Part shown: in pieces, positions 12,098 to 64,000 of the stretch
Numbering within the stretch: the first letter of the stretch is position 1
Layout: each line of letters starts with the position of its first letter
DNA from: Candidatus Woesearchaeota archaeon
Lineage (GTDB): Archaea > Nanobdellota > Nanobdellia > Woesearchaeales > WJIZ01
Length of the DNA stretch: 64,000 nt
Direction: 5' to 3'
NCBI GenBank assembly: GCA_018221205.1
Contig: JAAOYF010000045.1
Coordinates: 3,264 to 67,263 of the forward strand
The notes under the pieces: generated by a model
The model's input: the letters and a program-made list of their open reading frames with translations, nothing else
Database searches by the model: none
Told to the model about the DNA's origin: nothing
Made by a program: the position numbers and the translations under genes

Positions 12098-12673
12098 ATG
12101 GCTAAATATAAGAATATTCAAACACAAGGTAAGCCAGTTCCAGGTGATCTGAAGATCCGTTTCAAAGGCACATGGGATATGCAGGATCTGTATGAAAGTG
12201 TTGCTCATTGGTTAAGGGATAGGAAATGGAAGTTCCATGAGAAGGAGATTGAACAGGAACCTCCTACTCCTTACGGCCAAGAAAAGAAGTATACGTGGTA
12301 TGCTGAGAGGGATATGGATGAATGGGTCAGATTGAAGCTGAATATCTTTATCCATACTTATGATCTGCAGGATATTGTGGTTGTGGGTAATGACGGTGGC
12401 CAGAAAACAGTCCAGAAAGGAAAGATGTGGATCTACATGAAGATCAATGATACCTGGGACTATGAAGAGAATTGGGATAAAAAAAGATTCTTCGGCCAGC
12501 TGAAAGATTTTTACATCAAGTATATCGTGAAAAAAAGAAGGATGCAAGGTTGGTCTCCTCGGACAAGGACTGAACTTGTACAGCTCTATCATTTCATCCA
12601 GAACAAACTGAAGACAGAATCAAGGCAATTTGAGCACAAGCACATCGCTGGTGTGCATAGGAGAGGGCCATGA
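12098..12673 (+). CDS. Paralog A of a four-member family of unknown function. About 190 aa, rich in W, Y, F and H.
   Basis: Shares RFKGTWDMQDLYE, W..RK.KFHEK and IHTYDLQDI blocks with paralog B. The A stop overlaps the B start (ATGA). Confidence 0.6.
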   Translation: MAKYKNIQTQGKPVPGDLKIRFKGTWDMQDLYESVAHWLRDRKWKFHEKEIEQEPPTPYGQEKKYTWYAERDMDEWVRLKLNIFIHTYDLQDIVVVGNDGGQKTVQKGKMWIYMKINDTWDYEENWDKKRFFGQLKDFYIKYIVKKRRMQGWSPRTRTELVQLYHFIQNKLKTESRQFEHKHIAGVHRRGP

Positions 12674-13290
12674 TGGGGAATATGGAGAAGAAGCTCCGGG
12701 AAAAACTCAGGAAAAAGATCAAATGGCAGTATGAACAATATAAGAGTGTAGGAAAGATCCCTCACCCCTTGTCCCATATCAGATTCAAAGGAGTGTGGGA
12801 CATGCAGGATCTGTATGAATTTGTCGCCAATTTCTTACGGGAGAGAAAATATAAGTTCCATGAGAAGATTTACAAGCACAAACACCCTTCGCCCTATGGT
12901 GTTGAGCAGCAATTAGTGTGGGAAGCCAACCAAGTTGTGGATGATGTCTATACCTATGTCATCAATTTTTATGTGCATACCTATGATGCCCAGGACATCC
13001 AAGTAAAGATGAAGGATGGCTCTGTGAGGACATTCACCAAAGGAAGGGTCTGGATCGAGATAACGAGCCATATCGACATGTATGAGCATATAGGCTTCGG
13101 GAAGAATGCGTTCCTCGCCTATCTGAAGATCGTCATGCAAAGCTATTTATTGAGAAAGAGGCATGGATGGATCGAATGGGATGTCATGATGTATCGAGAA
13201 GTGCAGAAGCTGATCTGGCTGATGAGAAGACGATTAAAGATGGAATATGATGAGTACGAACAGAAAGACTGGATGGGAGTGCATACCTGA
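12670..13290 (+). CDS. Paralog B of the same family.
   Basis: RFKGVWDMQDLYEFVANFLRERKYKFHEK...VHTYDAQDI. Its stop overlaps the start of C (TGATG). Confidence 0.6.
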   Translation: MMGNMEKKLREKLRKKIKWQYEQYKSVGKIPHPLSHIRFKGVWDMQDLYEFVANFLRERKYKFHEKIYKHKHPSPYGVEQQLVWEANQVVDDVYTYVINFYVHTYDAQDIQVKMKDGSVRTFTKGRVWIEITSHIDMYEHIGFGKNAFLAYLKIVMQSYLLRKRHGWIEWDVMMYREVQKLIWLMRRRLKMEYDEYEQKDWMGVHT

Positions 13291-13826
13291 TGGGTGAAGT
13301 CAATCAGGTTGTGGACCATCTGAAGCTCGAGTATAAGGGCATCTTCAATATCAAAGAGCTCTTCGGTATGTTCGGCAGATGGTATAAAGAAAGTCCGTAC
13401 GAAAAAGGAGGAGACTATATCTCTGAACAACGGACACACCATGGGAAATGCATCGAATATGTCTACTGGCCGTGGAAGAAACAGACTGACTATATCAGGC
13501 ATTACATGAAACTGAGGATATTGATCTATGATGCGAAAAAAGTGGATGTCATGGTCGATGGAAAGAAGCAACGGCTGGACCATGCCAGGTTTTTATTGTA
13601 CCTTGATGGGTTTGTCGAAAACGACTATGAGAGCAGGTGGAGAGATACTCCGTTGTTCATGTTCATCCGGACTCTGGCCTCAAAGTTTTTTTACAAGCGC
13701 TATGCAAAGTTCATGGAGAGGATGGTCATCGATGACTGCCATCACCTCTATGAGAAATTCGAACGGTTCTTCAACATGTACCGAAGCTTCAGACCAGTGA
13801 AGAAACAACCACACTTTTACTACTAA
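13290..13826 (+). CDS. Paralog C, a second subfamily of the same fold.
   Basis: LKLEYKGIFNIKELFGMFGRWYKE...LLYLDGFVENDYESRW...FMFIRTL aligns with paralog D and more distantly with A and B. Confidence 0.6.
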   Translation: MGEVNQVVDHLKLEYKGIFNIKELFGMFGRWYKESPYEKGGDYISEQRTHHGKCIEYVYWPWKKQTDYIRHYMKLRILIYDAKKVDVMVDGKKQRLDHARFLLYLDGFVENDYESRWRDTPLFMFIRTLASKFFYKRYAKFMERMVIDDCHHLYEKFERFFNMYRSFRPVKKQPHFYY

Positions 13827-13827
13827 A

Positions 13828-14325
13828 ATGGCAGAGAAAAAACTCGTTGTTGATGGGTTGCAGCTTACCTATACTGGAATGTTCGACATAGAAGAATTCT
13901 TCATGGAAGTGGACAGATGGATGGAAGGCCACCATATGGAACGGGAGATCAAGAAAAAACTGGAGCATGTCGAACAGCACGGCAAGAAGATGGAGTATAT
14001 CTTTGAATTGTGGGAGCAGCATGATTATTCTCGTGTTGTTGTCAGGATGAAGGCATTGTTCAGAGATGTGGTCGAATTTGATCTGAAGAGGAATGATGTT
14101 ACAAGACACATGCAGAAGGGGCATTGTCTTATTGTGATTGATGGGTTTGTCGAAGAGGATCTGGAGCATCGTTGGGTACAGAAGCCTGGTTTTGTCTTTA
14201 TCCGTACGTTATATGACAAACTGATCTGGAAATACTGGAGCAGTGCACATGATTCGCACTGCATCAAATTATCGAATGGACTCTATAATGAGTTATTGAA
14301 TTACTTTAAGAAGTATAAGTACTAA
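13828..14325 (+). CDS. Paralog D of the same family.
   Basis: LQLTYTGMFDIEEFFMEVDRWMEG...LIVIDGFVEEDLEHRW...FVFIRTL. It begins 1 nt after the C stop. Confidence 0.6.
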   Translation: MAEKKLVVDGLQLTYTGMFDIEEFFMEVDRWMEGHHMEREIKKKLEHVEQHGKKMEYIFELWEQHDYSRVVVRMKALFRDVVEFDLKRNDVTRHMQKGHCLIVIDGFVEEDLEHRWVQKPGFVFIRTLYDKLIWKYWSSAHDSHCIKLSNGLYNELLNYFKKYKY

Positions 14326-14815: not shown

Positions 14816-14929
14816 GAGAGGGTAGCGAAGTCTGGTTAAACGCGCAGGACTTAAGAGGAACACCTAGTGTTGTACATTAGGAGATCCTGTCCCTTAGTGG
14901 GTCCGAGGGTTCAAATCCCTTCCCTCTCA
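14816..14929 (+). tRNA. tRNA-Leu with anticodon TAA and an intron of about 28 nt at the canonical position.
   Basis: Acceptor GAGAGGG/CCCTCTC. Anticodon stem CAGGA/TCCTG, loop CTTAAG|intron|A. Long variable arm. T-arm GAGGGTTCAAATCCCTT. A T-tract follows the 3' end. Confidence 0.75.
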
Positions 14930-14979: not shown

Positions 14980-15336
14980 ATGGCATCATTTGAACGTTCA
15001 AGAGAGAGAAAAGGTCGGAAAAAAGATTTTAGAGGTAATCCTTCACGAGGGGGTCCTAGAGGTCGAACAAGCAGTAGAGATAATTTTAGGGGCAAGCGTG
15101 ATTCTGACAAAGATTTCAAAAGGTCTGGTAGGCGTGAGTTGGAATTTACTAAAGTGATGTGCGCATCTTGTGGAGGTAAGTGTGAGGTGCCGTTCAAGCC
15201 GACAGGAAACAAACCTGTTTATTGCAGCGATTGTTTTAAGAAAGAGGATAAGCGAAGTTCCAGTAAGCCTTCTAACAAAGATTTTGATGTGATCAATGAA
15301 AAGCTTGACAAGATCATGGAAGCGTTAGGTCTTTAA
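14980..15336 (+). CDS. Arg/Lys-rich protein with a C-terminal CxxC...CxxC zinc ribbon.
   Basis: The N-terminus is a basic RG-rich low-complexity stretch. CASCGGKCEV...YCSDCFKK forms a four-Cys ribbon. Confidence 0.5.
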   Translation: MASFERSRERKGRKKDFRGNPSRGGPRGRTSSRDNFRGKRDSDKDFKRSGRRELEFTKVMCASCGGKCEVPFKPTGNKPVYCSDCFKKEDKRSSSKPSNKDFDVINEKLDKIMEALGL

Positions 15337-15406: not shown

Positions 15407-15519
15407 GCTCCCGTAGCTCAGCTGGTAGAGCGTTACCTTGGTAACTTCGAGCGAAGCAAGAAGGCTTGGAACGAAGTTCAAAGAGGTAAAGGTCCCGAGT
15501 TCAAATCTCGGCGGGGGCT
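15407..15519 (+). tRNA. tRNA-Thr with anticodon GGT and an intron of about 40 nt.
   Basis: Acceptor GCTCCCG/CGGGGGC. D-arm GCTCAGCTGGTAGAGC. Anticodon stem TTACC/GGTAA, loop TTGGTA|intron|A. T-arm CCGAGTTCAAATCTCGG. Confidence 0.75.
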
Positions 15520-15568
15520 TGTTCATTGGACACAGTCCTTTATAAACTAAAAAGCGTTCTTCTCGAAT

Positions 15569-16693
15569 ATGGCGTTGGAAGATAGTATCTATGATATTGA
15601 TTATTATATTGGTGTTTGTAGTGATGCAAACACTCTGGCCTTGGCTAGGTTATCGGAAACTAGCAGCGCCATACTTAATATCCTTTCTACAAGAAGATAT
15701 CCAAGATCTTCACATCTCCTTGATCACTATGCTCAGCTTTTATCAGCTCTAGAACATTTTGAAGAGGTATTTGCGGCAAGATCTAAAATGGGTGATGAAT
15801 TGCTCGCTACCTTAAAATCAAAGAGAGAGGGAATCACTTCCTTACTTAGACCTTCTCTTGAAACCCTCCATCACTTGTTCAATGGGGACCATCTTGAGGA
15901 CTGTCTCTACATGGATACGCTTCCAGAACCGATAAAAAGTGCGAAGGATACTGCTTTTTTCTATCTAGCTGGAAGAGATGATCTAACTGTGACTGAAGAG
16001 GGTATTGTGACAGTGGAAGAATGGATAAGGGTAGTTCATCGGTATACTGTATGGAATCTCGCTGTTCTTCATAGTGAAGAAGCAGAGTTTGGAGGAAAAC
16101 CCGCAACATACGTATTTGAGGACACTGGGATACCTTTCTGTGGGGTGGATGCTGATGCCTTTTTCTCCTCTTATTTACCTGAAATCAATCGAGCTATTGC
16201 TGACTTTGAGATAGCTCGTGGTGAAATCAAATTTGAAGATGTAATATTCACTAATCTCGGTTTTTCAGCATTCAAAAGAATAAAACATCATAATGCGCAA
16301 ATCCGTGTCATTTTAGACGGTGATCACTACCATATCCGATTCACTATGGGGGAGGCAGGTTATGGTACTAGTAGAGTTGAATATTGTAGTGAGCTCTTCA
16401 AACCAACGGAATTCACCCATAGAAGTGTCTACCATAATGTTCATAGCGCAACAGCAAGGACAGATGGAAGTACATTGCATCATGATATAACTTTTTTGCT
16501 TTGTGTAGCAGAAAACTTGACTGATGTGGATATTGGCTCAGGTCCTTGTCGACCAGAAGACTTCTATAGGAAATTCAGAATGATTTATGACGGTAAGACA
16601 CAACCAGAAGAACCAGGAAGACCGTTTAAAGTAGGCCATTTGGAAAACGGAGAACGTGTTTGTCATATCGGCTACACACTGTTTTCCTTTTGA
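15569..16693 (+). CDS. Hypothetical protein, 374 aa, lysine-poor and rich in His, Asp and Glu.
   Basis: Long ORF immediately 3' of tRNA-Thr. Its composition differs from the neighbouring K-rich genes. No recognisable motifs. Confidence 0.5.
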   Translation: MALEDSIYDIDYYIGVCSDANTLALARLSETSSAILNILSTRRYPRSSHLLDHYAQLLSALEHFEEVFAARSKMGDELLATLKSKREGITSLLRPSLETLHHLFNGDHLEDCLYMDTLPEPIKSAKDTAFFYLAGRDDLTVTEEGIVTVEEWIRVVHRYTVWNLAVLHSEEAEFGGKPATYVFEDTGIPFCGVDADAFFSSYLPEINRAIADFEIARGEIKFEDVIFTNLGFSAFKRIKHHNAQIRVILDGDHYHIRFTMGEAGYGTSRVEYCSELFKPTEFTHRSVYHNVHSATARTDGSTLHHDITFLLCVAENLTDVDIGSGPCRPEDFYRKFRMIYDGKTQPEEPGRPFKVGHLENGERVCHIGYTLFSF

Positions 16694-18910: not shown

Positions 18911-19465
18911 CTATCTACGATTGATCTCTATGCGAACCTTTCCTGGTTTGAAATCTCTCACTGATTTCTCAATTTCTTGGAGTAGGACCATCTCACCAAT
19001 TACTCTGTTGGCTCGATGCTCTTCGTTTGTATCAGCAGGCTCATGATAAGTCCTTATGCCTATTGTATACAATGCTTCAGGAGGTACTGTCTCATGGAGA
19101 TGTACATTCCCATCTGGATAGAACGTTGGGATTTGTAGCCCTGCTTCTTTGATTGCATCTATTGTCGTCAAAACCATGGAAAGAGAAGATTCTCTCCCAT
19201 CTTCAGACGGCCCTCCAGAATAAGAGAAAAATGAAGATGCTATTGCAGGAGAAAATAGTAATTGCCCTGTCGACCAGCAGCTGCATTGACCTCCTTCAGG
19301 GGTCAATGGCTTAAGTCCGTTGTCGGCTATTGTTTCAAGATCTTTCCCGTGCTTAATGCCGTGGAAAAGGAACATTCCTTCATTTGATTGGTCCACTAGA
19401 TTACGGATATGCGGAGCTAGATCTCCTCCGAGGTATCCTGCTACTTTTTGTGCATAATCTTCCAT
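18911..19465 (-). CDS. Hypothetical protein, 184 aa.
   Basis: ORF with plausible codon usage. No recognised motif. Confidence 0.4.
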   Translation of the reverse strand: MEDYAQKVAGYLGGDLAPHIRNLVDQSNEGMFLFHGIKHGKDLETIADNGLKPLTPEGGQCSCWSTGQLLFSPAIASSFFSYSGGPSEDGRESSLSMVLTTIDAIKEAGLQIPTFYPDGNVHLHETVPPEALYTIGIRTYHEPADTNEEHRANRVIGEMVLLQEIEKSVRDFKPGKVRIEINRR

Positions 19466-19477
19466 TTAGTTTACCTT

Positions 19478-20509
19478 TTAACGATATTCTATAGTTGTTC
19501 CGAGATGGACGCGGGCGAGGATTGCTGCAGAAGTTCCTTTGAGGATACTTCTCCTCACATCAAGAATCTGGTTTTTTTCCCTCTCTTCTGGTTGTTCAGA
19601 ACCGTGATTTTCTGAAGATGCATTAATATAGTGTATCATCTTATTTGGAACTTGCATAGGTATTTCTATGGCTCCATTAGCTCTATAGTCTCCAATTGTC
19701 ATGTGGTCGTCTTCTGAAAGCACTTGATGGCTCGCCACTGCCAGTACTGCTGTAGGATTTCCGTTATCATCATGGTAGAAATTCCTAGAAGGAGCAGTCT
19801 CCGGAGTAAAAAGCTTATCTCCTGTGTGCCATTCTGTCGGTTCATCTTCAAGAGGGAAGATTCCATCTAATCGAATGGCAATATCATAATTATGTACTGT
19901 CCTAAAGAGGAGCCTTTTTTCGTTGGCTACCCTTGTTATCTCTCTTAAAAGCAAAGGATTATTGATTCCAAAATCATAACAGACACTAAGATATTTCTCA
20001 ATAGGGAGTTCTCCATTATCTTGTACTTTGGGACGATCATATTTAGTGAACCAAAGTCCTAATTCCCTTTTTGCTGATTCTTTGGAATCAGACGAATGCA
20101 CCATGTTCTCCATTGCGCGATGCTCTAAATCTGCTAGAGCAAAACTGTCAATGGCTTTGTCTCGCCTTATTGTTCCTCTGGGATTATCAATTGGTTGTGT
20201 TTTCTCTCCAGCGAGTCTCCTGACTTGCTTAATAGCACCACCTCCTGCTATTCTTGCTACTACTACATGACTTCTCCTCATATATGACATGAGCTGATCA
20301 TAGAATTCTTCAAAAATTTCCTTACCCTTTTTTCTGAATTTCTCGAGCACTTCTTCGTAATGTTCCTCTAGTGCTCCTTTTGTCGGGTGTGTAACGAATA
20401 AGTCACCTACTTCCAGTCCGCTGCGTTGGAGCCTATCTATAATTCCGAGGGCTTCGCCTTTTTCTACTGCATCAGGCTTGATAATAAGCAGAGTCTCTTC
20501 AATTGCCAT
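19478..20509 (-). CDS. ndk: Nucleoside diphosphate kinase domain fused to a C-terminal domain of about 175 aa of unknown function.
   Basis: The NDK motifs LLIIKPDAV, TIRRD and NMVHSSDS (NxxHGSD-like) occupy the first ~165 aa. The start is taken at the internal MAIEETLL. The remainder has no match I recognise. Confidence 0.7.
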   Translation of the reverse strand: MAIEETLLIIKPDAVEKGEALGIIDRLQRSGLEVGDLFVTHPTKGALEEHYEEVLEKFRKKGKEIFEEFYDQLMSYMRRSHVVVARIAGGGAIKQVRRLAGEKTQPIDNPRGTIRRDKAIDSFALADLEHRAMENMVHSSDSKESAKRELGLWFTKYDRPKVQDNGELPIEKYLSVCYDFGINNPLLLREITRVANEKRLLFRTVHNYDIAIRLDGIFPLEDEPTEWHTGDKLFTPETAPSRNFYHDDNGNPTAVLAVASHQVLSEDDHMTIGDYRANGAIEIPMQVPNKMIHYINASSENHGSEQPEEREKNQILDVRRSILKGTSAAILARVHLGTTIEYR

Positions 20510-20644
20510 ATAATGGGGAATAAAAATAGCATTTATAAAGCTTCCCTTTTTGTTACTATTATATAGTGATATATAAATTGTATAATTTATTTTATCGTCT
20601 TTCTTGCTTATTTTCAATATAGAAAATAATTAAGGCAAAAAAAA

Positions 20645-57387: not shown

Positions 57388-58434
57388 TTAGGATTGTTCC
57401 TTTGTTTCTTTTTTCTCCTCAGGCTTATCAGCCTTTGGCTCTTCTTTCTTCTCCTCTGATCTCTCTTCAGTCTTCTCCTGGGCCTCGGGTTTCTGCTCTT
57501 TTGGAGCTTCTTCCTTTTTTGGCTCTTCTTTCGGAGTTTCAGGTTTGGGCTCTTCTTTCGGAGCCTCTTCCTTAGGAGCATCAGGGATATTAGCTGTCTG
57601 CTTTAATGATTGCATCTGGTTTTCTGCTTTAGCGAGTAACTCTGCTGTCACTGCATCAGCCATGAAATTCGCCTCTAAAGCGAGTGCTTTAGAATCTCTG
57701 AATGCCTTTGCGACAAGCTCTGGCATCAGTTCCTTTGTCAGATGGCCAATGTCCATAGCAAGATTCCTTGCCCAGCTAGCTGCTTGCTGTAGATCGGCCA
57801 TGAATCGATCTTCATCAACATCCAATACTTTTCGATCATAAATCGTTCCTGCCTCATAGATCCCTGTTATGTCCAAACCGATCTCCATGGGCTTGATGTC
57901 GAGCCTTGCCAAGACGCTCGCGACATTTGCCTGGATCACTTCGCCTTCCTTGACAACGACAGAATCTTCTTTGATGGCGACCTTTCCGTTTTCCACGCCT
58001 GTCTTGATGCCTATCTGGCCCAGCTCTCCGATAATGGGGCCGGGCATGAATGGGGTGGTGCCTGCCTTGACCATGATGTCTTTCGGAGCCTTCTGTCCTG
58101 CTTTGGCAACGGCTGGAGATTTTGACTTCTTGATTATCTTGTAAATAGCAAAGGGGTTTTCTTTCGTGAATAAAAGTGCGGGCATGCCATCCAAGCGTTC
58201 AACAAGGGTGTTGATGCCTTTTTTTGATTTCTCAGCCTCTTCGAACGCTAATTTCATCAATCTTCGCTTTGCCATGAATATCTCTGCTTTTCCTCTTAGC
58301 TTGGCACGCATGGTCTGGACAGCGCTTGCAGGCAGATTCTCCATGTTGACAGCGCCGATTATAGGAGCATCTACAATAAGCTTCACGAGCTTCTTTACCA
58401 GCTCTTTCTTATACGATGCTGCTTTTGTTTTCAT
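57388..58434 (-). CDS. rplP0: Ribosomal stalk protein P0 (L10e) with a K/E/P-rich tail.
   Basis: The N-terminal L10 domain and a C-terminal low-complexity extension. Confidence 0.9.
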
Positions 58435-59251
58435 CTTCGGTTTCAGGCTTTGATTCTATGTTAGGAGCAGGTTTTTCTTCAGGTTTGGCCTTTACTTCTT
58501 TCTTAGGTTTTGTCTCGGGATCGGCCTTTGCTTTCTTCTTAGGAGTAGGTTTTTTCTTAGGCTTCTCCTTCGGTGCTTCTTTCTCTTGCGGCTTATACTC
58601 TTCGCCTACTTTGAACGCCTGGCCCATGGTCATCTTCAGATAGACTTCCCGGATGTTATGGATATCACTAGGAAGGGCGTGGACCAATGCATTGTAGAGT
58701 GTCATGATATTATCTATGATATGTTCTTCATCCATCTCCTCTGTCCCTACGCGAGACTGGAAGATTGGAGCAGCATCTATCCGTATCCTGACTGTCTTCT
58801 GCAGCTTTTCTGCTACAGCCTGTAGGTTCGCATTAGGGGGAACGACACAGCCTGCTTTTGGATTAGGCATCTTTCCTCTCGGACCCAATGACCTACCGAA
58901 GGATGTAGCTACCTGAGGCATGATATTTGCCTGCGCCACAAAGAATGTATGTTCTTTAGCAAGCTTTTTCAGCACTTTCTTATCACTGAATTTTGAGAAA
59001 TCAGTTGCTGTGATAGACTTATCGAAATGCTTTTCAGCCTGATCCTTCAATTCTGGACCGACTAATCCGCAGATCTTGGTCTTCTTTCCTGTGCTGAAAT
59101 GGAGCTGGGCAAAGACATCTACCTTGTTATCCTGTTTCTTCAGATCAATGTCTTTGAGATTAACGACTATGTCTATGCTCTGCTTGAAATTCCGTTTAGG
59201 AGAATTATCTTTGATGATCTTTAAGGTCTGTTTTACTTGTGCTTTATCCAT
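58409..59251 (-). CDS. rpl1: Ribosomal protein L1 with a K/P/E-rich tail.
   Basis: L1 core followed by about 60 aa of KPxEK repeats. Confidence 0.9.
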   Translation of the reverse strand: MDKAQVKQTLKIIKDNSPKRNFKQSIDIVVNLKDIDLKKQDNKVDVFAQLHFSTGKKTKICGLVGPELKDQAEKHFDKSITATDFSKFSDKKVLKKLAKEHTFFVAQANIMPQVATSFGRSLGPRGKMPNPKAGCVVPPNANLQAVAEKLQKTVRIRIDAAPIFQSRVGTEEMDEEHIIDNIMTLYNALVHALPSDIHNIREVYLKMTMGQAFKVGEEYKPQEKEAPKEKPKKKPTPKKKAKADPETKPKKEVKAKPEEKPAPNIESKPETEDENKSSIV

Positions 59252-59345
59252 CTTCTCGCCCCTGCTAGCTGCGTGCAGTTAGTTTACGGGTATTACTGCT
59301 CTAGTCAAGGATTGAGAAGGGGTATATAAAGATTACGGATAAGGA

Positions 59346-59696
59346 TTAGAGGTATGGTTGAATATTCTTATGGGCTTCTCGGATTAACTCTGGACGACAT
59401 TCTCCATATGTAAATCCTGTTAAGGCTTCTGCGTCTCGAATGCCCAAAAATGACCATGCAAAGCGTGCTACTGCCTCTTGATAAGGATCATATGAACTTG
59501 TAGAAACATAACTTATGCCCCTGAGACCTTCGATAGCTTCATCCACGAATCTGTTCAAAATCATGCGATCCCCTGTAGAAAGATGCATCCGAAATCCATT
59601 TCTCACTAGAAGGTATGCTTTTCTCTTGAATTCTGATCTATATCTGCATGCTATTGCATGGATATCAATTTTCCTCACAAAACCTTCTAAGTCCAT
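59346..59696 (-). CDS. Hypothetical protein of 116 aa, lysine-poor.
   Basis: ORF preceded by a TATA-containing 25-nt element that is repeated upstream of the next gene. Confidence 0.45.
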   Translation of the reverse strand: MDLEGFVRKIDIHAIACRYRSEFKRKAYLLVRNGFRMHLSTGDRMILNRFVDEAIEGLRGISYVSTSSYDPYQEAVARFAWSFLGIRDAEALTGFTYGECRPELIREAHKNIQPYL

Positions 59697-59703
59697 AGTC
59701 GAG

Positions 59704-59728
59704 AAGAATGAATATCAGTATATAAAAT
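59704..59728 (-). promoter_or_regulatory. A 25-nt element AAGAATGAATATCAGTATATAAAAT (plus strand), copy 1. It contains a TATA box about 28 nt upstream of the 116-aa gene start.
   Basis: An exact second copy lies at 61502-61526. On the minus strand it reads ATTTTATATACTGATATTCATTCTT. Confidence 0.55.
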
Positions 59729-61452
59729 CAGGTGGCATATTGAACAAAATTCTTCTGTAAGAATGCTGAGACTTTTTCATCGCCGAGTCTGTCTGTTATT
59801 CTTTTTGCGCCTAGTGCAGATGTTAAATCTGCTTTTACAGTATCTCGTCTTGCATCTGCTATATCCAGAAATGCTAATCCGACAGCATATTGTCGGATTT
59901 CTGTTGGAGCTTCTTGTTCTTTTTCAAAATCGAAAATTGGAGTAGGGTCATCTATATTGTACAGGTACTCAGCACCATTTTCTAGTCTGTGTTCTGCAAT
60001 TCTTTCATAAATACTTGGTGCGGCTGATCTAGGATCCCAATCGTGAGCAGCGAGGATAACATGTACTGGATCAACATCTTCTCTTTTTACATCACTCTCT
60101 TTAAAGGGACCCCAATATGAATCGACTAGTCTTTCTACATAATGTATTAGATTACTATCACCATCAAGCCTTTGAACTAAATCCTTAAATCCGTCTAACT
60201 CCATCAATTCATGGGCTATCATAGTTTTGCCCATAAACCGATATCGATTTCCGCGTTCTTCTGATCGTGCTGCTTCTGCCCTTCTTTCATCTCTTCGTGA
60301 TTGGTACGTTTTATACTCTGAATCGATAGCCTGTAGGCTTCTTTTATCTCCTAATGATCCATATGCTTCTTTTACAAAATTGACTCCTGTATGCAAGTAA
60401 AAAGAGTCTCCTCCCTCTTTCATCACTTGTTGAGCGTGCTGATGGGTCCTGATAGCTGCACTCCTAAGCGTTTCACCCTCTAAGTCCATCAAGATACGCT
60501 TGAAATGCGCAGATTCCATAAGGATTAATCCATCTGCGTCTGTCATCTTCTCATGCAATCGTGTTAAGACTTTTTCATAATCAAATTCAGTCTGAGTTGC
60601 TACTCGCAATGCATATTCCCAGGCATATCTCCCTTTTTCCCCTAGTTGCCTTGCTATCTTGACGACTTCTTCTTTGACTTTTTCATCCATCTTTAATGCA
60701 CTTTCTGCATATACCTCAGCCAAAGTGTACATTTTTCTTTCTATAAGGTGGTGTGAAATAGCAATATAATCAGTAGCAGTTTGCTCTAGCGTTGGCTTAA
60801 TTCTCTGAAGAATCTCAGCGACTGGTGCCTTATCATAAGTGCTCGGGTAGGCGAACCAATTACATAATAGATCTTCACTACGCATCCAAAGCATTTCTCT
60901 ATTTTGAACAGACACTCCTGGCTCCCTTCCTAATTTTTCAAAGAATTTCAAAGCTTGATTTAATGCCTCTGGAGATGGATGGTCTTCCATGTAAGTTTGT
61001 GCTATCTCTGCACGACGGTCATCATCAATATCTTCTGTTTGTTCAAATAGGGATATGATTGTTTCGAGAGGTTTGTAGGATATTACACCATTTTCCCATT
61101 GTGGATGGAGAAAATCATGAGCGATTTCTTTTACCTTATCTTTTCTTCCGATTTGTGAAAATATTTCGGCCTGATATTCCTTATGTACTGCTGATATCCT
61201 CTGTACAGCGACCTCTTTGGCTTCTTCTGGAAGGAGTGCATATAACGCACCGATTCTTTCAGCAACAAAATCAATGGCTATTCCTCCTTGAGAGAGTCGT
61301 TCTACGAGATAATTAATGCCATGTTGAGCGATTCCAGTTCGTTCATCTTCATCAAACATAGAAAGATCTGGAGCAGTTTTTATATCGCCTGCCCTCTTCA
61401 CAGCTGATGCTGCAGCACCCATGGTCTGGAGTAAAAACTTTGGTATAGTCAT
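59728..61452 (-). CDS. Hypothetical alpha-helical protein of about 575 aa, Arg-rich and Lys-poor.
   Basis: Long ORF. The track start at 61461 is a TTG; the first ATG is at 61452. A GAGGAG Shine-Dalgarno-like element lies upstream. Confidence 0.5.
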   Translation of the reverse strand: MTIPKFLLQTMGAAASAVKRAGDIKTAPDLSMFDEDERTGIAQHGINYLVERLSQGGIAIDFVAERIGALYALLPEEAKEVAVQRISAVHKEYQAEIFSQIGRKDKVKEIAHDFLHPQWENGVISYKPLETIISLFEQTEDIDDDRRAEIAQTYMEDHPSPEALNQALKFFEKLGREPGVSVQNREMLWMRSEDLLCNWFAYPSTYDKAPVAEILQRIKPTLEQTATDYIAISHHLIERKMYTLAEVYAESALKMDEKVKEEVVKIARQLGEKGRYAWEYALRVATQTEFDYEKVLTRLHEKMTDADGLILMESAHFKRILMDLEGETLRSAAIRTHQHAQQVMKEGGDSFYLHTGVNFVKEAYGSLGDKRSLQAIDSEYKTYQSRRDERRAEAARSEERGNRYRFMGKTMIAHELMELDGFKDLVQRLDGDSNLIHYVERLVDSYWGPFKESDVKREDVDPVHVILAAHDWDPRSAAPSIYERIAEHRLENGAEYLYNIDDPTPIFDFEKEQEAPTEIRQYAVGLAFLDIADARRDTVKADLTSALGAKRITDRLGDEKVSAFLQKNFVQYAT

Positions 61453-61501
61453 ATGTATCAAACTCCTCAGAAATCTGAGGTTTTACCCTCTTTTTTAACG
61501 C

Positions 61502-61526
61502 AAGAATGAATATCAGTATATAAAAT
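61502..61526 (-). promoter_or_regulatory. The same 25-nt TATA-containing element, copy 2, upstream of the 575-aa gene.
   Basis: Exact repeat of 59704-59728. Confidence 0.55.
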
Positions 61527-61533
61527 TACTGAA

Positions 61534-62280
61534 CTATAATTTAAACACGTCTAATGGTTCTGGCAGAATCACTTTTATCGTGGAATCTTTCATCGCTTTC
61601 TTGATCTCTTCTTTCTTATCTCTGCGGCAGCTTCTATGGATATGAGTCAATGCTAATGCTCGAATCTTTCTTCTCTCTGCCATCTCGATTGTTTTCTTGA
61701 TCGATGAATGGCCTTGCTTTTCCTGTTCGAAGAAAAACGTCTCCTGGATCAATAGATCGCAGTTCTCATAGAGCTTCTCTGTCTCTGGGGTAAATTGGCC
61801 ATCGCCGGAATAGCAGACAGAATGCTTATTGTCAGTCACCCTTACTGCAAGATTAGGGACAGGATGGATAGTAGGGGCAAAGGTCAATTTCAGCTCGTTC
61901 AACGTGAGATCCTCTCCTGCTTGCACTTCGATGATGCTGAAAGGAAAAGTAAATCGTTCTTGCAGTTTGCTATAGCCTAATTTTATTATCTCTTCGATGA
62001 GCTTCTTTACCCCTTTTTGGCAGACTATGGTCAGTTTTTTTGTTCTCTGCTCTTCTGCCATCCTCACCAGTAAGGCTGGCAGGCCAAAATAATGGTCTGC
62101 ATGCCTATGGGAGATGTAGATCGCGTCAAGAAAATCTCTCTCGTCAGTATACTTCCATAATTGCCTCGGTACGGAATAGCCGCAGTCTAAAAGAAGATTA
62201 GTCTTTGAATGGATAAGATGAGAATTATTCGGAAAGCGTTCATCAGCTGCCTCTCCTACACCGATATGGATTAGTTTCAT
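61534..62280 (-). CDS. Metallo-beta-lactamase-fold hydrolase.
   Basis: The HRHADHYFGL (HxHxDH) motif. Confidence 0.7.
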   Translation of the reverse strand: MKLIHIGVGEAADERFPNNSHLIHSKTNLLLDCGYSVPRQLWKYTDERDFLDAIYISHRHADHYFGLPALLVRMAEEQRTKKLTIVCQKGVKKLIEEIIKLGYSKLQERFTFPFSIIEVQAGEDLTLNELKLTFAPTIHPVPNLAVRVTDNKHSVCYSGDGQFTPETEKLYENCDLLIQETFFFEQEKQGHSSIKKTIEMAERRKIRALALTHIHRSCRRDKKEEIKKAMKDSTIKVILPEPLDVFKL

Positions 62281-63362
62281 CCTGCTAGAGAAGGGATGGG
62301 GATATATATAGGTTTTCTTCTTTCCAATTGATTATATATCACCCCCACAATACTTTCTACTCCATTTTCTGGATGATAGGTATTCAATGGCAAAACAGTC
62401 CGCGGATTTCCAAACCTTTCGAGAGCATTACTAAGTTCTCTTTGCAGCTCTTCTTTGTTTTTTGCGATAGGCACCCGAGATTCAAATACATCTGCCCTTA
62501 TTGTATCACCCGGCCATGGCTGATAGCTCACACCAGGCACATCCGCAATACTTGCGTCAAGAAGTGTTGTTGAATAGGAACTTACAGCAACATCAGAGTT
62601 TGCAATGATAGTTATACAATCCCCTTGAACAAAGGGTATCCCTTCTGATCTGGCTCTTTCGAAGTGAGATTCGTTTGATTGTCCATGTTTCTTTATCTGA
62701 AACTTCACTTCTTGACCTAACCTTCTTATTGCATCCATAACCCCATCAAGAAATTGGCCTTGAGAATAAGGGCCTATTCTCAGAATCCCTCTTTCATAGT
62801 CAAGCTCGAAAGGACAGTCAAGATAAGTGACTACTGGAGTTTCATTAGCAGTAGCTGAAGCTCTTTTAACTCTTTCATATACCCCATCGAAATGAGGATT
62901 TCCAACTTCAATGAATGCCTGCGGATCGATTCCATGATCCTGCATATACGTATGGGTCGCGGGGTCTGTTATCAGTATTTTTGTTGGTAGCAATAACTGC
63001 CCATCAAGACGTTCAGAGAATTTGGCTAAACCAATCTGCCCCCCCATATCGGGTATGAGCATAAGATAGGTCGTATCGAGCTCACGGCATAAGCGCATCA
63101 GGGTATTTTCTGAGGGTTCCCGATAGGATTTGCCGCTCAGTACGAGGTCTGCCTGTTCTACCAACTGTCTTGCTTCTTCTTCGAAGGAGGCTTCTATCAA
63201 TTGATAATCTATCCCCATCTGATCCAATGTTGCTGCTCCAAATCCATCGTTAATGACTAGAAGTTCAAGTGAGGTATCTTGGCGTAAGGTATCTATTACG
63301 GGTTTAAGAGCCCGAGCAGCTAAAACTTCGCTTAGTAAGATAAGAATTTTTTCTTTTGACAT
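62277..63362 (-). CDS. Two-Rossmann-domain (GT-B-like) protein, hypothetical.
   Basis: Overlaps the MBL gene (ATGA coupling). Alternating beta/alpha pattern in two halves. Family not secure. Confidence 0.35.
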   Translation of the reverse strand: MSKEKILILLSEVLAARALKPVIDTLRQDTSLELLVINDGFGAATLDQMGIDYQLIEASFEEEARQLVEQADLVLSGKSYREPSENTLMRLCRELDTTYLMLIPDMGGQIGLAKFSERLDGQLLLPTKILITDPATHTYMQDHGIDPQAFIEVGNPHFDGVYERVKRASATANETPVVTYLDCPFELDYERGILRIGPYSQGQFLDGVMDAIRRLGQEVKFQIKKHGQSNESHFERARSEGIPFVQGDCITIIANSDVAVSSYSTTLLDASIADVPGVSYQPWPGDTIRADVFESRVPIAKNKEELQRELSNALERFGNPRTVLPLNTYHPENGVESIVGVIYNQLERRKPIYIPIPSLAG

Positions 63363-63479
63363 GGTAACTCCGAACGTTAGATATGTCTAGCAGACTCATT
63401 ATTGATTTATATATTATATCTGAATTATTTTTGTAAAAACAGAATATTTTTATATAATAACTATAATATTACAAAGATA

Positions 63480-64000
63480 TGGATCAAATCTTCAGATTAT
63501 CGGGAAACGAGCTCTCTGTTCTCCGCCAATTGGAGTCAAACGCGCGGATGTCTTACTCGACAATCGGCAAGAAAACAAGAAAAAGCCAGCAGCGGGTAAG
63601 CTATGCTGTGGCATCAATGGTAAAGAAAGGCATCATCACAAAATTGTATCCGTTGATTGATTATGCCAAATTAGGAATCTTGAGCTTCCGGGTTTACTTC
63701 AAGCTCTCCTATAAAAGCGAGCGTGAAGTGAAGGAATTTGTCGATCATCTTGCTTCCCGGAACTTTACATACTGGATTGCCCATACTGGTGGAGTATATG
63801 ATTTAATTTGTACCTTCTTTTCACCGAATGTTTCGCAGTTTTATAAGAATTTACGTCGGGTTATGGCGACATTTCCTACACTCATCCGTGACTATGCTGT
63901 GCTTACCACAATCGTCACCAGGAGATTCGGCAGAAAATATCTCAGAGTCGATGATCCTTCGAAGATAATCTATCTCGGCGGTGATCGTCCGAGGGAAGAG
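63480..64000 (+). CDS. Lrp/AsnC-family HTH regulator. The 3' end lies outside the window.
   Basis: LSGNELSVLRQLESNARMSYSTIGKKTRKSQQRVSYAVASMVKKGII is HTH_AsnC-like. The frame is open to the window end. Confidence 0.65.

Follow-up and report, generated by a model that had tools for sequence, protein, structure and literature searches.

This report concerns a 64,000-nt stretch of DNA from a Candidatus Woesearchaeota archaeon (assembly GCA_018221205.1, contig JAAOYF010000045.1, positions 3,264 to 67,263), referred to here as the window, and a 25-nt element within it, AAGAATGAATATCAGTATATAAAAT, which occurs as exact copies at positions 59704-59728 and 61502-61526 of the + strand, each of them upstream of a gene of the minus strand. 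The window is archaeal in content, with an L1-L10-L12 ribosomal protein operon and two intron-containing tRNA genes, and both open reading frames (ORFs) behind the repeat are NCBI proteins of 'Candidatus Woesearchaeota archaeon', encoded on a contig of 70 kb. On the minus strand the order is a 361-aa orphan, a 248-aa RNase Z-like gene, copy 2 with the 574-aa gene, copy 1 with the 116-aa gene, L1, L10, L12, DUF7121, RnfD and further genes. On balance, and with some reserve, we favour the view that the 25-mer represents a duplicated archaeal core promoter, which would serve the two orphan genes through promoter reuse or capture. The repeat region comprises the following elements:

59346-59696, minus strand: 116-aa orphan ORF (NCBI GOV09_05635, hypothetical protein)
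59704-59728, minus strand: copy 1, predicted core promoter of the 116-aa gene (exact repeat, TATA spacing)
59728-61452, minus strand: 574-aa near-orphan ORF (NCBI GOV09_05640, hypothetical protein)
61453-61494, minus strand: predicted 42-nt 5' leader of the 574-aa gene
61502-61526, minus strand: copy 2, predicted core promoter of the 574-aa gene (exact repeat, TATA match)

An all-against-all comparison of the window identified the 25-mer as its longest exact repeat, direct or inverted, the runners-up being tandem or paralogous coding repeats of at most 22 nt (the 22-nt one is a tandem coding repeat). All counts of exact and diverged copies given here refer to the 64-kb window. There the 25-mer occurs exactly twice, no further copy was found at up to 3 mismatches, and the nearest other matches carry 8 mismatches; one of these, at 63436-63460, was rejected as a family member, being the palindromic TATA box of a regulator gene on the + strand. 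Shuffled controls gave no match (0 in 100 shuffles), the repeat exceeds the chance maximum for 64 kb by about 8 nt, and the regions upstream of the two genes matched each other by blastn-short with E = 6e-9, nothing else being significant in either region. These results confirmed at both coordinates the exact duplication described in an earlier note on this DNA, and the search for many copies proposed in that note, run on the window, returned two exact copies and one diverged relative. When 190 nt around each copy were aligned, similarity was at background level on both sides beyond the 25-nt edges. Among the GTDB species representatives, a 20-mer of the repeat gave only three chance matches, all bacterial; a 22-mer had no match in the JGI metagenomes; and an 18-mer had two matches in IMG/VR, both without TATA context. 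Related loci covering 71 kb contained no comparable repeat.

Read on the coding (minus) strand, the repeat consists of AT, the TATA box TTTATATA and 15 nt of spacer, CTGATATTCATTCTT. By aligning the upstream regions of all plausible genes of the window, we obtained a local TATA consensus, TTTAWATA, which precedes about 27 genes and is matched by TTTATATA at 8/8 positions in both copies. In 10 of the aligned genes the TATA box has its last base exactly 22 nt from the ATG, the regulator gene at 63479 is an eleventh, and in three more the distance is 20, 21 and 23 nt; 22 nt is thus the modal TATA-to-ATG spacing of the leaderless-type genes in the window.

Gene starts with 22-nt spacing (plus strand unless marked): 14980, 15569, 36204 (minus), 40394, 42511 (minus), 43145 (minus), 43284, 56118 (minus), 59696 (minus), 62280 (minus), 63479

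The canonical archaeal TATA box is located at -30 to -23, centred about 26-27 nt upstream of the transcription start. With this geometry, a TATA box that ends 22 nt before the ATG predicts a leaderless mRNA starting at the A of the ATG, which implies that leaderless mRNAs would be the norm in this Woesearchaeote. The earlier note had described the element as a BRE/TATA-like box followed by 16 nt of identity. The TATA box stood up to the comparison with the local consensus, and the downstream identity amounts to 15 nt. The B recognition element (BRE), a purine- or A-rich stretch next to the TATA box on its 5' side, is on the other hand not part of the repeat: at this place the two copies have different bases (cacctgAT and ttcagtaAT), and because the repeat begins only 2 nt before that box the term 'BRE-like' is not supported.

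In copy 1 the TATA box occupies 59719-59726 and ends 22 nt before the ATG at 59696. The copy as a whole spans -31 to -7 from this ATG, ending 7 nt before it, and transcription of the 116-aa gene is predicted to start at the A of the ATG, without a leader. Copy 2 is placed differently. Its TATA box (61517-61524) lies 64 nt before the ATG at 61452, and the copy spans -73 to -49, starting 7 nt past the TAG stop codon of the upstream RNase Z-like gene. Within the 81-nt gap that precedes the 574-aa gene, the TATA match of copy 2 (8/8) is the best one; a 7/8 TATA-like sequence, TTTAAATT, is found just upstream of that gap, within the last codons of the preceding gene. The proposal that each copy stands immediately upstream of a gene thus applied to copy 1 (7 nt from the ATG) and not to copy 2 (49 nt), whereas that of a shared promoter is supported by position, with an 8/8 TATA box in both copies and copy 1 at the modal 22-nt spacing.

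The 64-nt spacing of copy 2 implies a leader, as at L1 (71 nt from TATA to ATG) and a few other genes, and transcription of the 574-aa gene is predicted to start near 61494. The leader carries a Shine-Dalgarno-like AGGAG 10 nt before the ATG and a hairpin, CCUCAG-AUUU-CUGAGG (61465-61480, minus strand), with a perfect 6-bp stem whose 3' arm overlaps the AGGAG. This overlap makes translational control possible, and the hairpin could serve that purpose; the fold of the leader is marginal (minimum free energy -11.5 kcal/mol, z -1.9). With regard to L1, its 71-nt distance is unusual, and would be expected if the leader holds the L1 autoregulatory site.

The two proteins encoded behind the repeat show no similarity to each other. 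Neither gave anything significant in searches of Pfam, PHROGs, PADLOC, NCBIfam and PDB sequences, and the 116-aa protein had no homologue among 5.8 billion clusters, in a phage collection or in the PDB. For the 574-aa protein, a word-indexed search retrieved only the protein itself, while an exhaustive HMMER scan of 1.84 billion representatives led us to identify two remote homologues (E = 2e-9 and 1.5e-4). An end-to-end alignment of the three proteins shows a common PDLSMF motif towards the N-terminus and F...NF towards the C-terminus, which argues for a full-length 574-aa ORF, with its start at the ATG at 61452 and a natural end at the TGA. Its length, given as 575 aa in the earlier note, is therefore 574 aa counted from this ATG (577 aa if an upstream TTG is used). 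The homologues occur in unrelated contexts, with neither a 116-aa-like neighbour nor a repeated promoter, and one of them (L009) has a leaderless-type promoter, so that the long leader of the 574-aa gene looks secondary. The 574-aa ORF and copy 1 have a single base in common, 59728, the last one of the TGA stop codon. In both ORFs the annotated frame is the best-scoring coding frame, and both depart from the usual codon usage. Their G+C content at third codon positions (GC3) is 0.280 for the 574-aa ORF, the lowest of 58 genes, and 0.308 for the 116-aa ORF, against a window value of 0.48 +/- 0.07. Single-sequence AlphaFold models were poor (predicted local distance difference test scores of 55 and 44). 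A Foldseek comparison of the 574-aa model with the PDB returned only generic helical repeats of the tetratricopeptide (TPR) type, with TM (template modelling) scores below 0.21; the 574-aa protein may, with low confidence, be all-alpha and TPR-like, such scores showing no more than an all-alpha character.

A third, diverged member of the family was found 44 kb from the repeat, before a 374-aa orphan ORF (15569-16693, + strand, GC3 0.307) that directly follows an intron-containing tRNA gene and has no family or PDB match:

15537-15583, plus strand: diverged promoter relative before the 374-aa orphan (33/43 identical to the copy-1 region)

Its TATA box, TTTATAAA, lies at 15539-15546, 22 nt before the ATG. 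The best local alignment with the copy-1 region is ungapped, runs from the TATA box through codon 5 and scores 36 against 14.9 +/- 4.2 (z about 5). In the ATG-anchored register 32 of 47 positions are identical, against 12.5 +/- 3.2 over 2,795 windows, the next best reaching 24; taken as a whole, the relative stands out with a z of about 5-6. When ten promoters with 22-nt spacing were compared, this pair shared 25 of the 37 columns outside the TATA box and the ATG (z = 4.1), and the next pair 17. The likeness comprises 10 of the 15 spacer bases and 15 of 16 around the start. In copy 1 it extends beyond the 3' edge of the 25-mer (TTCTTCTCGAnTATGG, 15/16), and in copy 2 it does not, the flank there being unrelated. 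This result suggests that copy 1 is the complete member of the family, with copy 2 appearing to be a truncated derivative joined to a foreign leader. No similarity was seen between the 116-aa and 374-aa proteins. A profile built from the three sequences detected no further member in the window, and a degenerate pattern of the family had eight single matches in IMG/VR, within rough chance expectation. By its sequence, then, the 25-mer is a member of a small family with at least one diverged relative. The exact 374-aa product is not in the NCBI protein set, and its annotated start may therefore differ.

The sequence between the TATA box and the start is generally unconserved in the window, pairs of promoters sharing 11.2 +/- 3.4 of 37 columns. 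The 15 additional identical bases of the repeat are therefore more than a generic promoter requirement would explain. On inspection, the 15-nt spacer contained no convincing dyad or tandem half-sites and no hairpin. The region around the copies folds no better than shuffled sequences (z +0.26 for copy 1 and -0.24 for copy 2). The attC sites found at integron cassette boundaries are imperfect inverted repeats of 50-150 nt that form hairpins; these fold scores revealed no attC-type hairpin at either copy. A search of Rfam over 59000-62000 gave no match at E <= 1.

Taken in terms of promoter reuse, the segment copied would comprise the TATA box and the following 15 bp, to about position -8, so that two adjacent, unrelated, lineage-specific young orphans would each have their own copy and each copy would recruit TBP, TFB and RNA polymerase independently. 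Copy 1 would give rise to a leaderless mRNA of the 116-aa gene, starting at the A of its ATG, whereas copy 2 would direct transcription from about 42 nt ahead of the 574-aa gene, into an mRNA that would include a small hairpin and a Shine-Dalgarno-like site. Because of the perfect identity and the sharp edges, the copying would be recent, and it probably took place when the 574-aa gene joined the fast-turnover interval upstream of the L1 operon; both its direction and its timing are inferred. Archaeal repressors commonly bind the spacer between the TATA box and the start, where they block the recruitment of polymerase. Since the 116-aa and 574-aa genes share this spacer together with the basal promoter, they are probably co-regulated.

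Similar events have been described as promoter reuse, or putative mobile promoters: near-identical upstream sequences found before non-homologous genes of one prokaryotic genome (Matus-Garcia, Nijveen & van Passel 2012; commentary PMC3575422). They were not associated with any known mobile element, and were suggested to act by rewiring or activating genes, some of them newly acquired (PMC3575422). As in those cases, the downstream genes are non-homologous here (116 vs 574 aa, 116 vs 374 aa). The survey, however, admitted only upstream sequences whose identity reached 80% or more across 50 nt or more between -150 and -50 (PMC3575422), whereas the identity described here covers 25 nt at the core promoter and 33 of 43 positions in the pair formed by copy 1 and the promoter at 15569; moreover, the present case is archaeal (TATA/TBP) and of the leaderless type.

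Several points weigh against promoter reuse. The sharp edges and exact identity are equally expected from a duplication generated by an insertion, and the closest relatives (at best 72% identical in L1) are too distant to show a state before the duplication or an empty site. Both copies lack the A-rich stretch that most promoters of the window have 5' of the TATA box, and promoters of this kind may be weak or activator-dependent; BRE strength varies in archaea, and an absent BRE lowers the predicted strength of a promoter that is still possible. The likeness to the promoter at 15569 was spotted post hoc, though it ranked at the top of all 2,795 comparisons. The number of copies is that of the 64-kb window and not of the genome, and promoter activity and transcription start sites were inferred from sequence position.

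The neighbourhood of the repeat is delimited by two genes that served as anchors for the comparison with related genomes, and includes the gene upstream of copy 2:

58409-59251, minus strand: ribosomal protein L1, downstream anchor and first gene of the conserved L1-L10-L12-DUF7121 block
61534-62280, minus strand: 248-aa metallo-beta-lactamase-fold protein (ribonuclease Z in NCBI), upstream neighbour, GC3 0.474, typical of the window
63479-64000, plus strand: Lrp/AsnC-like winged-helix regulator, divergent upstream anchor, running off the window

Relatives were located through L1 (the best was 72% identical in this protein), and four loci were examined. The L1-L10-L12 genes and a 294/295-aa DUF7121-type gene were kept in all four, and the regulator anchor in two of them (L004 and L005). 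The regulator at 63479 shares 58% identity (E = 9e-70) with the two-domain regulator of the closest relative (L004:2808-3800), in which the orthologue lies one gene from L1. What stands immediately upstream of L1 varies from one relative to another (a divergent methyltransferase; three small ORFs; a ROK-family gene; an unrelated 450-aa ORF), and neither the 116-aa, 574-aa and 361-aa genes nor the RNase Z-like gene had a counterpart in any of the fetched loci. The presence of variable genes between conserved anchors indicates that the interval from L1 to the regulator is a hotspot of gene turnover. In metagenomes and viral contigs, no locus related to the RNase Z-like and 574-aa proteins was found. 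The RNase Z-like gene has its own TATA box 22 nt before its ATG. The regulator gene was missing from the ORF list, as it is cut by the window end; the divergent intergenic region between it and the 361-aa orphan (62277-63362) measures 116 nt.

The earlier note had also considered that the repeats might be the boundaries of a 1.8-kb insert. In such a scenario a target-site duplication, or the core repeats of attachment (att) sites, would have been left by the insertion of a 1.77-kb segment (leader plus 574-aa gene) downstream of the promoter of the 116-aa gene, duplicating this promoter as a by-product. The repeats do resemble such footprints: they are perfectly identical, have sharp edges, are in direct orientation and bracket exactly one gene, the one with the lowest GC3 of the window, with an atypically long leader and no TATA box of its own, in an interval that is a turnover hotspot in the relatives. 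Nevertheless, the segment has no terminal inverted repeats, as its ends (GCGTTAAAAAAGAGG... and ...CAATATGCCACCTG) are not complementary, and no transposase, integrase or mobile-element domain is encoded in the interval or by its neighbours (genes between 59.3 and 64 kb). Insertion sequences and casposons are not known to give target duplications as long as 25 bp, a tRNA target is lacking (with the nearest tRNA genes at a distance of 44 kb), and the 1.77-kb segment holds a full-length member of a small protein family, which is unlike a miniature inverted-repeat transposable element. An insertion would also need a coincidence, since the full-length 574-aa ORF ends exactly at the edge of the repeat, which itself coincides with what appears to be a functional promoter unit. 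Finally, the GC3 of the 116-aa gene, which lies outside the putative insert, is no less atypical, and a related promoter exists at the third locus. On these grounds we disfavour the insertion and consider it unlikely.

Alternatively, the identity might be old and kept by selection, with a transcription factor binding the 15-nt spacer; the two genes would then form a regulon, which might also include the 374-aa gene, without any recent copying. The conserved part does span the TATA box to -8, where archaeal repressors typically act, the diverged third member retains two thirds of the spacer bases and nearly all of those around the start, and an Lrp/AsnC-like regulator gene lies 1.95 kb upstream, in divergent orientation. 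The TrmB/Tgr, SurR and Phr sites are archaeal regulon motifs that overlap core promoters, and are degenerate and usually palindromic. As with these motifs, a common sequence between the TATA box and the start would allow joint control here; unlike the repeat, they are not 25/25 identical with sharp edges, and the repeat lacks symmetry. Selection for a binding site rarely yields full identity with a step to background at both edges, and the spacer offers no convincing half-sites. In addition, the regulator is conserved in a relative without these genes, and is therefore not specific to them, while the likeness of the third member reaches the first five codons, which suggests descent of a DNA segment over a protein-binding motif. 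We thus regard a long-standing operator as quite unlikely.

We find it quite improbable, too, that the 574-aa and 116-aa genes came together from a virus, a plasmid or another element with a stereotyped promoter before each gene. In support of this idea, they are consecutive, unrelated single orphans, each with the same regulatory sequence, a pattern found in SIRV2 and many archaeal viruses (PMC11065993); both have low GC3, and the third related promoter precedes an orphan beside a tRNA gene. Archaeal viruses contain runs of small, fast-evolving single orphans, each preceded by a near-identical promoter core with flanking conserved bases (PMC11065993), and the present arrangement is similar in that one regulatory sequence stands before several unrelated orphans (two identical copies and one diverged). 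The early or anti-defence motifs described there, however, belong to viral genomes, include a strong purine-rich BRE, are usually at least 30 nt long and contain regulator-binding repeats (PMC11065993), whereas the repeat studied here is chromosomal, has no BRE and shows no viral signal, lying between ordinary cellular genes (the RNase Z-like gene and the L1 operon). The nearby genes include no viral or plasmid hallmark, there was no PHROG or PADLOC match of any weight and no match in IMG/VR or the phage collection, and a second copy of the tRNA 3' end, the mark of an integrated element beside the 374-aa orphan, is absent from the window. The present case is thus one that falls under the concept, and not the formal criteria, of mobile promoters or of the viral motif.

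A wider version of promoter copying is also conceivable, although we hold it to be decidedly doubtful: with translation mostly leaderless in this genome, promoter and start codon would make up a compact module of about 45-50 bp (TATA box, 22-nt spacer, ATG and a few codons), which may have been copied around the genome and placed before the three unrelated orphans of atypical composition. The landing site, either newly acquired or hitherto non-coding DNA, would in that way be switched on as a translatable leaderless gene. If true, such a module would be a simple route to the birth of orphan genes in DPANN archaea.

A chance repeat, or a loop made by the metagenome assembler, is very improbable, for even though the contig comes from a metagenome-assembled genome, the repeat is well beyond the chance maximum and was never obtained in the shuffles, both copies are placed where a promoter would be expected and have intact, full-length ORFs on either side, and 25 nt is shorter than the final k-mers of common assemblers.

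Other features of the window were noted in the course of the analysis. A C/T-rich stretch of the CCTTCT type between the TATA box and the start is common to the promoters of 56118, 62280, 8328, 43145 and L1 (59251), all on the minus strand, and is perhaps a promoter-proximal element. The lowest GC3 values (0.28-0.34) are those of the genes at 15569-16693, 18911-19465, 19478-20617, 59346-61452 and 62277-63362, which are Pfam-less ORFs except for the kinase-domain gene at 19478-20617; this concentration of low GC3 in ORFs without Pfam matches suggests that the orphans form a compositionally distinct class here. The two tRNA genes (14816-14929 and 15407-15519, + strand) are about 113 nt long, presumably with introns, and were found by Rfam and missed by ARAGORN; a gene for a treble-clef zinc-finger protein (14980-15336) lies between them. 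L1 (280 aa) and L10/P0 (348 aa), encoded at 57388-59251 on the minus strand, have long C-terminal tails rich in Lys, Glu and Pro, with a 26-nt overlap between the L1 gene and the start of the L10 gene. The L1 proteins of the relatives are 215-299 aa long, most of them 240-290 aa. At 12098-14325 (+ strand), adjacent genes have exact words of 15-18 nt in common at constant offsets (12179/12802, 12230/12853, 13603/14138), which indicates tandem paralogues.

As a mechanism, promoter reuse belongs to a class already known, so that our work adds a new example of a known event and opens no long-standing question. Independently of it, gene starts in genomes of this kind can usefully be corrected by the rule that TATA box and ATG lie a uniform 22 nt apart. 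If the reading of the 25-mer as a copied core promoter is right, the locus would be a clean, datable case in which a compact archaeal genome copied a 25-bp core promoter for new genes instead of evolving one. It would, furthermore, mark two and perhaps three orphans as a probably co-regulated set, providing a handle on proteins that are so far unannotated.

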